Assembly: GCA_046116545.1 (NCBI GenBank)
Contig: CP175956.1
Span: forward strand, 705,734-769,733
Direction: 5' to 3'
DNA length: 64,000 nt
DNA from: Candidatus Moraniibacteriota bacterium
Lineage (GTDB): Bacteria > Patescibacteriota > Minisyncoccia > Moranbacterales > GCA-2747515
Part shown: positions 490-25,724 of the stretch, piece by piece
Numbering within the stretch: the first letter of the stretch is position 1
How the letters are laid out: every line of letters starts with the position of its first letter
Made by a program: the position numbers and the translations under genes
The notes under the pieces: generated by a model
Told to the model about the DNA's origin: nothing
The model's input: the letters and a program-made list of their open reading frames with translations, nothing else
The model's database searches: none

Positions 490-507
490 AATATTATTTA
501 TAATAAA

Positions 508-540
508 GGTCCAACATTCGGGCAATCCGAAGGTTGGACC
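508..540. repeat. palindromic element, variant copy of the GGTCCAAC...GTTGGACC family
   Basis: ggtccaacattcgggcaatccgaaggttggacc: same 8-nt arms as the copies at 30813, 32534 and 38464, with a different centre. Confidence 0.6.
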
Positions 541-593
541 TTGAATGCACACAATAATTGAACTAAATTTCACTTTTTATCTGTTATAATACA

Positions 594-621
594 ATCATAC
601 TAGTATAAACACCCTTTTGCA
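594..621 (-). promoter_or_regulatory. putative sigma70 promoter for tyrS
   Basis: On the minus strand: TTGCAA (616-621), 17-nt spacer, TATGAT (594-599). It lies about 100 nt upstream of the tyrS ATG. Confidence 0.4.
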
Positions 622-659: not shown

Positions 660-689
660 TTGACAAAATTTACATGATATGCTAATATG
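660..689 (+). promoter_or_regulatory. near-consensus sigma70 promoter reading into the GC-rich ORF-less island
   Basis: TTGACA (660-665), 18-nt spacer, TAATAT (684-689). It is divergent from the tyrS promoter. Confidence 0.5.
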
Positions 690-695
690 CATTGT

Positions 696-1695
696 TGACG
701 TAAAAAACGTCACAAATACATTAACAATTGAAAAATGACTTAGAGACAAATTTCAAAGGAGTCTATCATCTCTGTGGTGAAGAATATACAATTATGTATT
801 CGTATATCTATAAATATATGATACATAATTGTATATTTTTCCCAAATACCTATAAAAGGCACGCCTGTGCCACAAATCAAAGGAGGTGATTTTAAATGAG
901 GAGTCCGCCAATGCAGAACATTCAATCTATTAAAGTAATGTGAATCTACCCCGGCCGCCGGCACACGCCATAAAGTTGCGGTGCCAAACCCGCGCTCCCA
1001 ACCTGTCGCAAGGGAGCATTATAAAAAAAGCGATAAATTCCGGACGTGCCTATATTGAAAACGGCCTTATCCGGAAAGGAGAACACATGAAAATTCCCTG
1101 CCACCAGCGACGATGCTGGCATAGGTGGTTTGGTTAGCTGTTTCAAAAATGAATTACTGTCTACAGTATCAAGTTAGAAGGTCAAAATATGACCACTGTA
1201 GATATTCATTACTGTTGTAATTCATGGCCCGCAGCCGTGTCCGATTTTACGGACAAGCGGGAAAACATACAAATTACACAACCGTTCGTTGACTCCCAGC
1301 CGGCATTCGCCCTATAGGCGGTGCTGACATGGAAGATTTGTCTCTAGTTTCATCTACACTATAAAGCTCACAAACGATTTAGTGAAACAAATCACCGTGA
1401 GCGTAGTAGAGATAGAATTATCCCCACCGCCTCAAACCCGGCCACAGTCGCATCGGGCATTACGTACTCAAGTTTACAAAGAGAGCACGTACGCACCCGC
1501 TGCTATGATTCTGAGAGGCCCCGTAAAAAGGCACAACTGTTTGATGATTTTATCCTGTCCATACCATGACCGCCCCAAATATAATTTGGAGCCGGCCAAG
1601 CAATTTGGAAGGATATATCACAAGTAGTGCCACGCTGGTTGGGAGTCATTTTTTTAAATGTATTGAAATATAACGGGACCATTAGCAAAAGCTTT
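696..1695 (+). ncRNA. candidate large structured non-coding RNA (unclassified)
   Basis: About 1 kb with no credible ORF. GC content is strongly elevated (long stretches near or above 50%) in an otherwise ~30% GC window. It lies between a consensus promoter (660-689) and a hairpin plus T-tract (about 1650-1700). Only short mutually overlapping ORFs on both strands are present. Confidence 0.3.
896..943 (+). CDS. 15-codon mini-ORF (MRSPPMQNIQSIKVM) behind a perfect Shine-Dalgarno sequence
   Basis: AAAGGAGGTGA at 878-888, 9 nt spacing to ATG at 896, stop TGA at 941-943. It sits inside the candidate RNA. Confidence 0.2.
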   Translation: MRSPPMQNIQSIKVM

Positions 1696-1700
1696 TGGCC
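1650..1700 (+). terminator. weak intrinsic terminator-like hairpin plus T tract
   Basis: cgggacc...caaaagcttttg...ggccccg followed by tttttctttatc. Confidence 0.3.
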
Positions 1701-1733
1701 CCGTTTTTCTTTATCTATTTTTATTTTATACTA

Positions 1734-2996: not shown

Positions 2997-3911
2997 TTAC
3001 ATATTTTCAAATACTGGTATGATTTGTTTTTTACGAGATACTAATTTGTCTACAAATAAAATATCATCTTTATTTTCAGCTTCAAACAATCTTGTAAATA
3101 ATGCAATTTCTTCCTCGCCTGCACCAAGTGTATAACTTTTTTCATCCAATATATCCACAATAACAAAAAATACACCTTGTAATTTATCAGCTGCCTTAAT
3201 ATCCTTTAATTTTGCAACAATCTCATCTTTTCTATCTAATCCAAAGTCAACATTAGTAGTTTCCATTACACCAATACCATATTCACCATCTTTAAATGTA
3301 AATGATTTATAGTCTAATCTTATTAACTCTTCAACTTCAATATCTCCCAAATTACTTTTTGCATTAAATAATTTCAAACTAAACTCTTCCAAATCATCAA
3401 TTCCAACAATATCATTTAACTTATCAGCCAACATCTTATCGACATCTGTTGTCGTAGGTGAACGGAAAAACAAAGTATCAGAAATAATACCTGAAAGCAA
3501 AAGGCCAGCAATACTCTTTGTAAGCTCAGTATTTGTATCAAAATATTTCTCAGCAATAATAGAACAAGATGAACCAAGTGGTTTTATGAAAATTGAAATT
3601 GGCTTATCTGTTTCAATTTTCACCTTATGATGATCAATAATTTCTACAATATCAAGATCTTTAATATTATCAATACTTTGCTTTTCTTCATTATGGTCAA
3701 GTAAGATAATTTCAGTACCATGTGGTAATTCAGTAATCTGCTCTGGTGCATCCACACCAAACTGCTCCAAAACAAATTCTGTTTCTTTATTTAATTTTCC
3801 TAGTGCAAACGCTTGAGCCTCTACACCCTGTTTAGCAAGAAAATTCTGATAAGCGATCCCACTACAAGTAGTATCTGTATCTGGATTTTTATGCCCTATA
3901 ATATGTTTCAT
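2997..3911 (-). CDS. ppaC: manganese-dependent inorganic pyrophosphatase (family II, DHH-DHHA2)
   Basis: N-terminal HKNPDTDTTCS and DHNE motifs; C-terminal VSRKKQIIPV, typical of PpaC. Confidence 0.85.
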   Translation of the reverse strand: MKHIIGHKNPDTDTTCSGIAYQNFLAKQGVEAQAFALGKLNKETEFVLEQFGVDAPEQITELPHGTEIILLDHNEEKQSIDNIKDLDIVEIIDHHKVKIETDKPISIFIKPLGSSCSIIAEKYFDTNTELTKSIAGLLLSGIISDTLFFRSPTTTDVDKMLADKLNDIVGIDDLEEFSLKLFNAKSNLGDIEVEELIRLDYKSFTFKDGEYGIGVMETTNVDFGLDRKDEIVAKLKDIKAADKLQGVFFVIVDILDEKSYTLGAGEEEIALFTRLFEAENKDDILFVDKLVSRKKQIIPVFENM

Positions 3912-4457: not shown

Positions 4458-4793
4458 TTAAACTTCTTTCTTTAGATTATCTTTTTTAACTATTTTTATA
4501 CCTTTTACTCCAAAAATAAATAAAAGTATAATTACTATTTTTAAAATATAATTATCACTTATACTTATAAAGTCTCTAGTCATAGGAGTAATTGTCCCAA
4601 AAATTAAGTGACTTAAAATACTAATTGGCAAAGTTAAAAATAACCAACTTTGCTTTGGCACATAAATTCTCATTTTCAAAAAAATTCTTGATAATAACGG
4701 CGAAAGTAACCAAATGCCCACAAAGGCTACTATAAAATCAAAAATAGCATACTCCCCTATACGAAATTGTCTCAAAAATTCTAACAAACTCAT
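4458..4793 (-). CDS. hypothetical small membrane protein
   Basis: 111 aa with 3 predicted TM helices. Confidence 0.45.
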   Translation of the reverse strand: MSLLEFLRQFRIGEYAIFDFIVAFVGIWLLSPLLSRIFLKMRIYVPKQSWLFLTLPISILSHLIFGTITPMTRDFISISDNYILKIVIILLFIFGVKGIKIVKKDNLKKEV

Positions 4794-4889
4794 ATTTTAC
4801 AAAAATTAATGATATATTATAAAATTTATTATTCACACCCTAATCATCCACCATCCAAATTACACTTCATTCTGAGCCAACTAAATCCT

Positions 4890-10480: not shown

Positions 10481-12184
10481 CTATTTTTTATTCTGATTTA
10501 GTTTTTCCTTAACATTAGGCATTATTAACCATTGTCTCTTTTCTAACCATTCTCCAGCTACATATTTCATGATAATCTTTACAATTACAATTGCTGTAAA
10601 CATTGACACTAGCACACCGATTATCAAGATAAGTGCGAAACCTTTTACAAAACCAGTTCCCATGGCCATTAGTATCAATGAAGTAATAATTGTTGATAAA
10701 TTACCATCTCGTATAGATGGCCATGCTCGACGAAAGCCTTCATCAACTGCCCTTTTGATATTCTTACCCATTCTTAGCTCTTCTTTAATTCTTTCAAAAA
10801 TAAGTACATTTGCATCCACTGCCATACCTACAGAAAGTACAAGCCCTGCTATCCCAGCCAAAGTCAACGTAATTGACATGGGAGTAAGGCCTGAGAGTTT
10901 AAATATTGAAATAAGTGTTGCCGCATAAATACCTAGAGCCACCGAAGCAATAATCCCAAAGAATCTGTAATACAAAATCATATAGATCATAACCAAGACT
11001 AACCCTAACAAACCAGCTCGCATACCTTTTTGCAACGCTTCTGCTCCAAGAGTCGCTTCAATGCTTTGTTGAGATACTAGCTCAAAGGGCACTGGCATAG
11101 CACCCTCATTCAAACTTCTAGCCAGCTCTTTTGCTTCTTCTATTTCGAAATTTCCTGAAATAACAGCAGTTCCATCAACTATCTCAGCCTGTACAGTAGG
11201 CGCACTAACAACCTGATTGTCAACATAGATTGCTACTGTTTTACCAAGATTTCTCTTTGTAATGTCAGCAAACATCTTTGCACCATCTGAATTAAAAGAC
11301 AATGTAACTTGTGGTTCAGATGCTCCAACTCCATTGCTATACCCAGCCATTGCATTATCTAAAAATTCCCCAGTTAAATCAGTGTTTTTATAAGGATCTG
11401 CAGGCACAGTCATTTTTGCAAACAAAATGTGTTGACCTTTTACTTCTCTGTCATCACCCTCACCCCGAGATTCTAATTTCTTTATAATATGCCAACCAAA
11501 ATCAGTCTCAACTAATTCTTGATTAGTATCACCATCATTCATGTCCTCATTAAACAACACATCATCAAATTCTGGTACATATTGACCTCTTTTTACAAAT
11601 TCAAGCTCACCGCCATTTTCTGCACTTCCTGGGTCCTTACTAAATTCTTTTGCTAACTCAGAAAAATCTTCACCATTTTTTATTCTTTCCAATACAGCAT
11701 CAGCTTCTTCTTTGTTCTCTTCATTCATTGGCGCAAGCATTTCCTCCATTTGTTTTTTATCATTTTCAACCTCTTCCTCAGTCTTTTCTTCTTTAAATTG
11801 CAAAATAGGTGCTTTTTGTATCACATTTTTAACATCCTCAGCATTTTCAACACCAGGGATCTCTACAGTCATAAACGTATCACTACCTCGCTCTGCCAAC
11901 CATACAATAGGCTCTCCTACACCATATGCATTAATTTTTCGCTCTGCTGCTGCTTGTACAGCGTCCTTTGCAGCATCTTTTTGATCATTTGGCGTATTTG
12001 ACAAATCTAACAAATACTCAAGATGTAACCCACCTTGCAAATCAAGTCCTAAATTAATTGCTACTTTATCAAACTTACTTTGAATATTTTCTGGCATATA
12101 CTGAACAAATGGCAATGCTATAATTGCCATAATAAGAGTAAACACCACTACATATATAAACTTTCTTCTATTTTTCTTGTACAT
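10481..12184 (-). CDS. secD: protein-export membrane protein SecD with an inserted parvulin-type PPIase domain
   Basis: SecD hallmarks (DLQGGLHLEY; P1-head segment TVAIYVDNQVVSAPTVQAEIVDGTAVISG; 6 C-terminal TM helices). A PpiC/parvulin signature (FSELAKEFSKDPGSAENGGELEFVKRGQYVPEFDDVLF...FGWHIIKK) is inserted at residues ~150-245. Confidence 0.85.
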   Translation of the reverse strand: MYKKNRRKFIYVVVFTLIMAIIALPFVQYMPENIQSKFDKVAINLGLDLQGGLHLEYLLDLSNTPNDQKDAAKDAVQAAAERKINAYGVGEPIVWLAERGSDTFMTVEIPGVENAEDVKNVIQKAPILQFKEEKTEEEVENDKKQMEEMLAPMNEENKEEADAVLERIKNGEDFSELAKEFSKDPGSAENGGELEFVKRGQYVPEFDDVLFNEDMNDGDTNQELVETDFGWHIIKKLESRGEGDDREVKGQHILFAKMTVPADPYKNTDLTGEFLDNAMAGYSNGVGASEPQVTLSFNSDGAKMFADITKRNLGKTVAIYVDNQVVSAPTVQAEIVDGTAVISGNFEIEEAKELARSLNEGAMPVPFELVSQQSIEATLGAEALQKGMRAGLLGLVLVMIYMILYYRFFGIIASVALGIYAATLISIFKLSGLTPMSITLTLAGIAGLVLSVGMAVDANVLIFERIKEELRMGKNIKRAVDEGFRRAWPSIRDGNLSTIITSLILMAMGTGFVKGFALILIIGVLVSMFTAIVIVKIIMKYVAGEWLEKRQWLIMPNVKEKLNQNKK

Positions 12185-25657: not shown

Positions 25658-25724
25658 AATAATTACCTCCTTGATAGCAAGCTTCTGATTTTAATGTTAA
25701 ATTACTTAGTTTTTTTCAAATACA

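Follow-up and report, generated by a model that had tools for sequence, protein, structure and literature searches.

What is encoded by a GC-rich island of about 1 kb that stands next to tyrS in an AT-rich genome and holds no long open reading frame (ORF)? The island lies in a 64,000-nucleotide stretch of Candidatus Moraniibacteriota DNA (contig CP175956.1 of assembly GCA_046116545.1, positions 705,734 to 769,733 of the forward strand), the whole of which we analysed and refer to as the window. An initial annotation, made from the letters alone, proposed a large structured RNA behind a promoter of its own. Here, we provide evidence that positions ~695–1712 of the plus strand are an independent accessory gene for an undescribed, highly structured RNA of about 1 kb, mostly untranslated and possibly dual-function. 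From comparison of the sequences, we consider this reading probable, at roughly 0.6. Members of the family are so far known from a single genus-level clade within Candidatus Moraniibacteriota, as judged from tyrS loci and pattern scans.

A predicted transcription unit in the GC-rich island

The host belongs to the candidate phyla radiation (CPR), and the GC content of the window is about 31%. One JGI (Joint Genome Institute) metagenome and two NCBI metagenome assemblies hold contigs identical to it, and its TyrS protein is encoded on a contig of 1,286,331 bp. Positions 880–1700 are its GC-richest part. In 200-nt windows, GC runs at 0.42–0.50 from ~800 to 1700 and at 0.26–0.33 in the flanks (about 0.28 before the island, and back to about 0.29 after ~1700). 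The 400-nt windows 801–1200 (0.422) and 1201–1600 (0.472) are the top two of all 160 such windows in the 64 kb, and the third highest reaches 0.415. The first ~190 nt of the predicted transcript (696–880) are AT-rich. GC skew shows no switch at the island, and hence no signal of a replication origin. The following features delimit the unit:

660–688, plus strand: sigma70 promoter with extended −10 (TTGACA 660–665, 17-nt spacer, TAATAT 683–688, TG 680–681)
695–1712, plus strand: whole predicted transcript, about 1,020 nt, from promoter to terminator, with homologues of full length
1673–1712, plus strand: intrinsic terminator, hairpin ACGGGACC...GGCCCCGU, then UUUUUCUUU

The promoter scores 10/12 in a consensus scan. 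Transcription is predicted to start about 7 nt past the −10 box and to end in the U-tract. The terminator was missed by a consensus terminator scan because its loop is itself structured. Downstream, in the same orientation as the element, a gene at 1790–2293 encodes a 167-amino-acid (aa) membrane protein without a Pfam domain and has its own promoter (1734–1762, 11/12). To the left, tyrS reads from the minus strand; its start codon is at 487–489, and promoter-like sites lie at ~594–630 of that strand. A sigma70 promoter and an intrinsic terminator, both kept in homologues, mark the element as an independent bacterial RNA gene.

Most of this layout had been described in the initial annotation, and we confirm the promoter pointing into the ~1 kb, the hairpin plus T-tract at its end, the separate promoter of the next gene and the adjacency of tyrS. 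Likewise, only short overlapping ORFs occur on both strands, none longer than 81 aa. Two details change: the promoter spacer is 17 nt rather than 18, and the island, which has the highest GC content in the 64 kb, begins near 880 and not at 696.

Six variants at the tyrS locus

We gathered variants of the element by fetching the tyrS neighbourhoods of relatives; the closest TyrS proteins are all from Candidatus Moraniibacteriota (Moranbacteria) and other Patescibacteria. Five further variants were found, each sitting in the interval from tyrS to the 167-aa gene and oriented as in the window:

W, the window: TyrS identity 100%, about 1,020 nt
C, locus L084: TyrS identity 89%, about 1,000 nt
B, locus L025: TyrS identity 82%, 557 nt, a short form without the central domain
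E, locus L095: TyrS identity 82%, first ~100 nt only
D, locus L096: TyrS identity 80%, first 473 nt only
A, locus L006/L097: TyrS identity 78%, 1,083 nt

All six carry the promoter TTGACAAAWT-N8-TATGCTA. Common to the variants are a hairpin that directly follows the predicted start of the transcript, the invariant UACAUUAACAA, an AT-rich hairpin of 25–30 bp, and a Shine-Dalgarno (SD) sequence followed by AUG. Full-length copies continue to a helix, UGACUCCC..CCG with CGG..GGGAGUCA, and then a terminator, whose hairpin is the same in W, C and B and different, again followed by a U-tract, in A. The order of modules is hairpin H1 with the invariant UACAUUAACAA, the AT-rich hairpin, the SD sequence with a mini-ORF, a domain closed by helix Pc, hairpin H5, and a 3′ domain closed by helix P3. 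Between W and C, near-identical blocks are mixed with blocks of zero similarity, and C combines the AT-rich hairpin of B with the central domain of W. This mosaic pattern points to recombination between variants.

So far, the element is known from this locus only. No second copy occurs in the 64-kb window, and when 767 kb of related loci were searched with a covariance model of H5 (R1), the only matches were W, C and A. In viral contigs, the central-domain pattern gave four matches, all of them chance occurrences inside phage coding genes, and the 3′ pattern gave none. Pattern scans of a metagenome collection without the JGI contigs that carry the window or C returned 0 matches at first, and then only the known contig of D.

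Conserved helices and the coding strand of the RNA

The predicted structural features of W are as follows:

696–712, plus strand: H1, 5′ hairpin UGACGU-AAAAA-ACGUCA, supported by covariation
776–843, plus strand: H2, near-perfect AT-rich hairpin of ~29 bp with one G.U, from the fold; Rfam matches of microRNA-precursor type only
858–871, plus strand: H3, GC hairpin GGCAC-GCCU-GUGCC, from the fold; hairpins of other sequence at the same position in A, C and D
946–1137, plus strand: central GC-rich domain closed by helix Pc, CUACCCCGGCCGCC (946–959) with GGUGGUUUGGUUAG (1124–1137)
1039–1075, plus strand: hairpin UCCGGACGUGCC...GGCCUUAUCCGGA in the central domain, from the fold; nearly the same in D
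1104–1119, plus strand: H4, CCAGC-GACGAU-GCUGG just before GGUGGUUUGG; 5 pairs, one compensatory
1159–1203, plus strand: H5, 9-bp stem, conserved asymmetric loop AUCAAGUUAGAAG, inner stem; 15 pairs, 3 compensatory
1228–1261, plus strand: H6, GC hairpin CCCGC...GUCCG-AUUUUA-CGGAC...GCGGG, from the fold; W only
1290–1648, plus strand: 3′ GC-rich domain closed by the 15-bp helix P3, UGACUCCCAGCCGGC (1290–1304) with GCUGGUUGGGAGUCA (1634–1648)

Helices held by compensatory changes, the mark of a structured RNA, are found in H1, H4 and H5. In H1, both sides have changed in four of the seven pairs, 97% of cells are paired across five variants, and the covariation score was reached by none of 500 shuffles; a hand alignment that includes D has zero broken pairs in six variants. 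RNAalifold on W, C and A recovers H4 and H5, with four compensatory pairs in total. The stem of H4 in D reads GAAAGG/CCUUUC, and the asymmetric loop of H5 (13 nt; AUCAAGUUAGAAG in W) is conserved. Helix Pc forms in the minimum-free-energy (MFE) fold, with 12 of 14 positions paired in W, three of them as G.U; in C, a change of GCC to AUC retains the pairing, as aligned by hand. The H2 position holds a 25–30-bp hairpin in every variant, of differing sequence except that C and B share one.

Which strand carries the RNA is indicated by the imperfect pairs. P3 is 98% paired in four variants, and read on the plus strand its imperfect pairs comprise six G.U and no A.C. Pc and H2 likewise use G.U pairs. 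Together with the promoter and terminator, these G.U pairs place the RNA on the plus strand.

Inside the 3′ domain, the sequence diverges freely. The interiors, 155–359 nt long, are unalignable among W, C, A and B, and have a GC content of 0.48–0.59; each of the four is better folded than its dinucleotide-shuffled counterparts (z −2.8 to −4.0). In a genome of 31% GC, such a composition would not be expected to persist without selection. The fold z-score of 860–1710 on the plus strand is −6.0.

The leader and a boxA-like motif

The leader of the transcript contains an invariant motif and a segment that may pair with the trailer:

714–727, plus strand: invariant single-stranded motif AAAUACAUUAACAA, of which UACAUUAACAA is identical in all six variants
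731–740, plus strand: leader segment AAAAAUGACU, which can pair with trailer AGUCAUUUUU at 1644–1653

The motif follows H1 after a gap of 1–5 nt, is U/A-rich and ends in UUAACAA. A hairpin followed by such a motif, just after a strong promoter and ahead of a long untranslated transcript, recalls the leaders of rRNA operons (boxB, boxA, boxC) and the boxA leaders of CRISPR arrays (PMC7665894, PMC5725501, PMC10250234). The boxA consensus of gamma-proteobacteria is GYUCUUUAANA (PMC5725501), and boxA elements shield untranslated transcripts, namely CRISPR arrays and some mRNAs, from Rho (PMC7665894). The motif matches this consensus in part, at ~8 of 11 positions. A boxA-like function of the motif may be proposed by analogy: hairpin and motif together would keep RNA polymerase processive along the untranslated transcript, much as happens on rRNA operons and CRISPR arrays. 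If the leader is genuinely boxA-like, it would give a first view of transcription antitermination signals in CPR bacteria.

As in rRNA operons, pairing between leader and trailer is possible. In the MFE fold of W, 731–740 pairs far downstream near the 3′ end, and the segment at 1644–1653 might tentatively be taken as its exact partner in this model. In A, the corresponding segments are AGAUGACU and AGUCAUCU, which pair by hand with one compensatory change.

Similar leaders occur at two loci of more distant Moranbacteria, L061 (89–270) and L081 (329–500). Both have a strong promoter that is nearly identical, followed by the motif GUACAUUAAAAAUU, together with a hairpin that is conserved (…CCCAGUUUUUGCCUUUAGUUAGUGAUCUAAUUUGAGGCAGAAAUCGGG…). 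Judged from their N-terminal sequences, the genes behind these leaders appear to encode secreted proteins. The leader of L061 and L081 is possibly a shared element of highly expressed transcripts.

Mini-ORFs at the strands of the central helix

The initial annotation overlooked two short ORFs that are kept in position and preceded by strong SD sequences:

765–773, plus strand: CU-rich segment AUCAUCUCU, complementary to SD1 (AGGAGGUGAU) and paired with it in the MFE fold of W
879–889, plus strand: SD1, AAAGGAGGUGA, an 11-nt Shine-Dalgarno sequence
896–943, plus strand: mini-ORF 1 (MRSPPMQNIQSIKVM), stop UGA at 941–943
1087–1137, plus strand: mini-ORF 2 (MKIPCHQRRCWHRWFG), stop UAG, preceded by SD2 GGAAAGGAGAA at 1073–1083

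Each of the five variants that extend over this part has an SD sequence and an AUG. The pairing of SD1 with the CU-rich segment can also be drawn in C and D and is unclear in A and B. The peptides of mini-ORF 1 are wholly different from one another (15, 16 and 11 aa in W, C and A; 45 aa in B), and the single SD-led ORF of D, 10 aa long and of the WFG type, is counted with mini-ORF 2. That second ORF is SD-led and ends in ...WFG-stop in W (16 aa), C (18), A (48) and D (10), with the in-frame start retained in all four.

Both mini-ORFs end at the strands of a helix. In W, C and A, 0–2 nt separate the stop of mini-ORF 1 from the 5′ strand of Pc that follows it; in B, the short form, this stop overlaps the 5′ strand of P3. 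The final codons and stop of mini-ORF 2 are themselves the 3′ strand of Pc. Between W and C, the amino-acid changes of mini-ORF 2 sit in the loop of H4. That the stem is kept while loop codons change suggests that the RNA fold, and not the peptide, is the main constraint there.

These data allow for two interpretations. In the first, the small peptides, for example the Trp/Arg-rich ...RWFG, are the product, and the transcript is a small-protein mRNA with long structured untranslated regions. We regard this main rival as unlikely, though it has real points in its favour: SD and AUG are found in all variants even though SD-like sequence is rare in the window (5/46 long genes), the frame of mini-ORF 2 and its ...WFG-stop are retained in four variants, and D has an additional SD-led ORF of at least 32 codons that runs off the contig end. 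Set against these are the lack of conservation in sequence and length (10–48 aa for mini-ORF 2, 10–45 aa for the first SD-led ORF), the W/C changes in the H4 loop that alter amino acids and spare the stem, the double use of the ...WFG-stop nucleotides as the 3′ strand of Pc, and the more than 85% of the transcript that lies outside ORFs and is still GC-rich and folded. In addition, the 48-aa form of mini-ORF 2 in A has no homologue in a large protein database. A known precedent for such a dual arrangement is RNAIII of Staphylococcus aureus, a 514-nt RNA that encodes delta-haemolysin, a conserved peptide. The present element resembles RNAIII as a large multi-hairpin RNA bearing a short ORF, and differs from it in that the peptides are unconserved and no homology is seen.

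In the second interpretation, which we favour within our reading of the locus as an RNA gene, translation is part of how the RNA works rather than the sign of a conserved protein product. The mini-ORFs bracket Pc. A ribosome finishing mini-ORF 1 would cover the 5′ strand, so that the domain opens and SD2 is exposed; a ribosome ending or pausing at ...W-F-G-stop would occupy the 3′ strand. Ribosome traffic would thereby set the fold of the RNA, with the GC-rich 3′ domain as the likely effector or scaffold. A bolder version of this idea, which we find doubtful as a whole, is that the element represents a new class of translation-gated large CPR RNA: one mini-ORF would end in an arrest-like ...RWFG-stop, ribosome traffic (and possibly Trp/Phe supply) would decide the fold, and the 3′ domain would be a rapidly diversifying, strain-specific effector cassette exchanged between strains.

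Leader-peptide attenuators and arrest peptides, such as trpL, pheL and tnaC, offer a comparison. Like these, the element has a short ORF of variable length with a conserved Trp/Phe-rich C-terminus that ends in or beside an alternative helix strand. Unlike these, it has no regulated coding gene downstream within the transcript, and no terminator/antiterminator pair is assignable. The comparison bears on whether the element is a long cis-acting leader or attenuator of the 167-aa membrane-protein gene, acting by terminator read-through. The element does lie directly upstream of that gene, in the same orientation, in W, C and B, and mini-ORFs with Trp and Phe codons beside alternative helices are leader-peptide-like. 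We nevertheless consider a cis-acting role very unlikely: a strong terminator is followed by the gene's own 11/12 promoter, mini-ORF 2 is set apart from the gene by some 570 nt of structured RNA, and two relatives (L085, L087) have the gene and its promoter without the element.

The paired SD1 also calls to mind type I toxin-antitoxin systems of the hok/sok style, in which a structured mRNA with 5′–3′ fold-back and a sequestered SD encodes a small toxic peptide. The likeness extends to the high degree of folding, the possible leader-trailer pairing and the accessory, strain-variable locus, and the 48-aa form in A has a hydrophobic stretch. The peptides of W, C and D, on the other hand, are short and cationic and do not resemble membrane peptides, we identified neither an antisense promoter nor an antisense RNA that is conserved, and a 1-kb transcript is two to three times as long as the known type I toxin mRNAs. 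The chance that the element is a toxin-antitoxin locus of this kind is, in our view, slim.

Two forms of recoding were considered and rejected. A frameshift fusion of mini-ORF 1 to mini-ORF 2 is contradicted by the extent of the second frame, which is open back to the first only in W (67 codons) and not in C (43), A (48) or D (29). Recoding of the selenocysteine type is at odds with the stops, which are UGA in W and B but UAA in C and A.

Two side observations concern SD-led ORFs. The third such ORF in L096 (1–96, minus strand; MLKENPIMSAIRSWLDTAVNAIMRAAVVVLPG...) follows the conserved UCCGGACGUGCC hairpin. Elsewhere in the window, a few small genes have a very strong SD, for example at 25672, 30683 and 62428.

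Searches against known families

We searched Rfam 15 at gathering scores across the 64 kb, at E ≤ 10 with relaxed filters over 500–1900, and at E ≤ 5 in four homologous loci. No family reached its gathering score in the window, including tRNA, rRNA and riboswitch families. At the relaxed thresholds, nearly all matches were generic microRNA-precursor models on H2 (775–845), none near its gathering score, and weak matches elsewhere (preQ1-II, L20 leader; E > 1) were far below theirs. ARAGORN likewise found no tRNA or tmRNA in the 64-kb window.

The initial annotation had listed RNase P RNA, tmRNA, SRP RNA, a group II intron, OLE, GOLLD, ROOL, HEARO and raiA as candidates, to be checked with covariance models, and none of them is matched. 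RNase P RNA (RF00010/RF00011, gathering score 100 bits) gave no match at the gathering score or at E ≤ 10; tmRNA gave 0 genes by ARAGORN and no Rfam match; and SRP RNA, 6S RNA, group I and II introns, GOLLD, ROOL, OLE, HEARO and raiA gave no covariance-model match. The same models found RNase P RNA in three related loci at 114–168 bits, which shows that the Rfam negative cannot be put down to models that fail in CPR genomes. A highly diverged representative of one of the known families (RNase P, tmRNA, SRP, group I/II intron, GOLLD, ROOL, OLE, HEARO or raiA) would fit the size and GC richness, and short look-alike strings occur (GAGGAGUCCGCC; GGAGCCGGCCAAGC). Given the absence of any match with relaxed filters, the empty ARAGORN result and the ready detection of RNase P RNA elsewhere, we judge this explanation extremely unlikely. 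Moreover, an element that is absent from close relatives cannot be an essential RNA.

Two functional classes were also set aside. A T-box leader, suggested by the tyrS neighbour, has no Rfam T-box match, and the element is transcribed away from tyrS. A CsrB-like sponge for CsrA/RsmA is not supported by the GGA counts, which are 15, 20, 14 and 8 against shuffle expectations of 13, 15, 17.5 and 7.

A protein-coding gene or pseudogene, the alternative raised in the initial annotation, finds no support: there is no long ORF and no translated similarity. Pfam at E ≤ 1 returned nothing for 10 stop-to-stop frames, and the longest frame, of 99 codons, has no relative among 5.8 billion proteins. Collections of phage and plasmid DNA held no similar DNA, and our literature searches turned up no account of an RNA of this kind in the candidate phyla radiation.

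Other GC islands near tyrS have other causes. That of L018 is coding sequence, and those of L010 (6973–7384), L011 (7294–7705) and L069 (2728–3124) are RNase P RNA, located 1–3 kb from tyrS. These three loci are from other Patescibacteria, and in the two that belong to Moranbacteria, RNase P RNA scores only 114–116 bits, barely over the 100-bit gathering score.

An accessory, strain-variable locus

The element is present in some close relatives and absent from others. In L085 (81% TyrS identity) and L087 (84%), only 148 and 226 nt, respectively, separate tyrS from the 167/168-aa gene, and the tyrS promoter region leads directly into the promoter of that gene. L005 is identical to L006 upstream of tyrS up to the base before the −35 box of the element, and then differs; L004 departs from the window at the same point. 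Relatives at or below 73–74% TyrS identity have other neighbours at tyrS and no copy. In many samples (L004, L005, L086, L088, L094, L095), the contig ends 60–420 nt upstream of tyrS. Such repeated assembly breaks are expected where strains differ, and where a contig does read on, near-identical strains differ in sequence. The site is a hotspot of strain-level variation.

It is also possible that conservation here acts at the level of DNA, the locus being a cassette that moves or recombines, or GC-rich DNA of foreign origin in decay, and the helices being terminal or internal inverted repeats. Presence and absence among close relatives, the divergence of L005 and L006 at the −35 box, and the assembly breaks just upstream of tyrS are all compatible with this idea, as are the mosaic variants (C has a W-like core and a B-type H2), the inverted ~95-nt repeat copies between which the gene of C lies, and the resemblance of P3 to 15-bp terminal inverted repeats. 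The details argue otherwise. The six imperfect P3 pairs are all G.U on the plus strand, with no A.C, and G.U pairs are needed in Pc as well; promoter, leader and terminator have been kept together as a single transcription unit; P3 has no target-site duplication, there is no transposase, and the 64 kb hold no second copy; and GC content and foldability are held in interiors that share no sequence. On balance, we find a DNA-level explanation quite unlikely and keep to that of an RNA gene.

Two specific signs of mobility were examined and discarded. A MITE (miniature inverted-repeat transposable element) or transposon is contradicted by the lack of a target-site duplication at P3 in four variants, by the single copy in the window and by the absence of copies elsewhere in 767 kb. 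The direct repeat CTATTGACAAAA (657, 1731), a candidate target-site duplication, corresponds to the −35 regions of the two strong promoters, and the same box also occurs at the unrelated promoters of L061 and L081.

The inverted repeat in L084 is an observation in its own right. Copies of ~95 nt at 3499–3593 and 4781–4881 bracket the RNA gene and the tyrS promoter, with 43 nt at 91% and 46 nt at 74% complementarity, and one copy lies inside the tyrS leader. The repeat looks MITE-like, and the arrangement is composite-transposon-like.

Weight of the evidence

How well, then, does an RNA gene account for the locus? The proposal of a ~1-kb structured RNA has held up: homologues keep the promoter and terminator, helices carry compensatory changes, and the G.U pairs fit the plus strand only. 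The covariation analysis suggested in the initial annotation gave a divided answer, in that H1 lies beyond shuffles and H4/H5 have compensatory pairs, while P3 is not above shuffles. Besides the mini-ORFs, that annotation had missed the modular mosaic build and the presence and absence among close relatives.

Several points weigh against our reading. The covariation of P3 is within the shuffle range, because all its changes are transitions through G.U, and Pc and the leader-trailer helix were paired by hand. Covariation statistics are thin in general, because the known variants number only six and all come from a single narrow clade and a single locus. Overall, the fold of the minus strand is slightly better (z −7.2 versus −6.0). 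Since the position of the mini-ORFs is kept, the peptides or their translation could be the real product. The leader motif matches boxA at ~8/11 positions of a gamma-proteobacterial consensus that may not be that of CPR bacteria, and the host's own rRNA leader lies outside the sequences compared, as neither the window nor the fetched loci contain an rRNA gene. A similar promoter and motif (GUACAUUAAAAA) stand ahead of ordinary protein genes in L061 and L081, which fits a general transcription signal rather than one specific to this RNA. Finally, the absence of the element from the close relatives L085 and L087 makes it dispensable and accessory.

Large structured RNAs other than ribosomal RNA are rare in bacteria; the classes include OLE, GOLLD, ROOL and raiA. 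Like OLE, GOLLD and ROOL, the present element falls in the range of 0.6–1 kb, is rich in helices, stands out as a GC-rich island from an AT-rich genome, has a promoter and a terminator to itself, lacks a protein product and is patchily distributed. Unlike these, it matches none of them in sequence or structure, contains SD-led mini-ORFs, has a 3′ interior that is unconserved between close relatives, and occurs in one CPR clade at one locus. Ornate bacterial RNAs of the OLE, GOLLD and ROOL class have been visualised by cryo-electron microscopy (PMC12286853).

Each new large RNA class has opened questions on what RNA does without protein, and here an unusual trio comes together: conserved closing helices, freely diverging yet well-folded interiors, and mini-ORFs placed exactly at helix strands. 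The candidate phyla radiation is a very large bacterial branch, whose members are ultra-small, depend on hosts and have strongly reduced genomes. That a 1-kb accessory RNA is retained in a genome of ~1.3 Mb implies a real benefit.

Other features of the window and related loci

The 5′ leader of tyrS (490–600, minus strand) contains a strong hairpin, GGUCCAACCUUCGGAUUGCCCGAAUGUUGGACC, at 508–540, followed by UUUAUUAU just before the start codon. This 114-nt leader folds with z −4.25 and matches no T-box or other Rfam family; the hairpin may act in attenuation or in autoregulation by TyrRS.

In the relative L086 (3224–3595), a gene with bAvd / 23S_rRNA_IVP domains, which are those of the accessory protein type of diversity-generating retroelements, is inserted between pheS and pheT. 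In the window at 10481–12184 (L001 18692–20395), Pfam identifies a SecD with peptidyl-prolyl isomerase (PPIase, Rotamase) domains fused to SecD/SecF domains.

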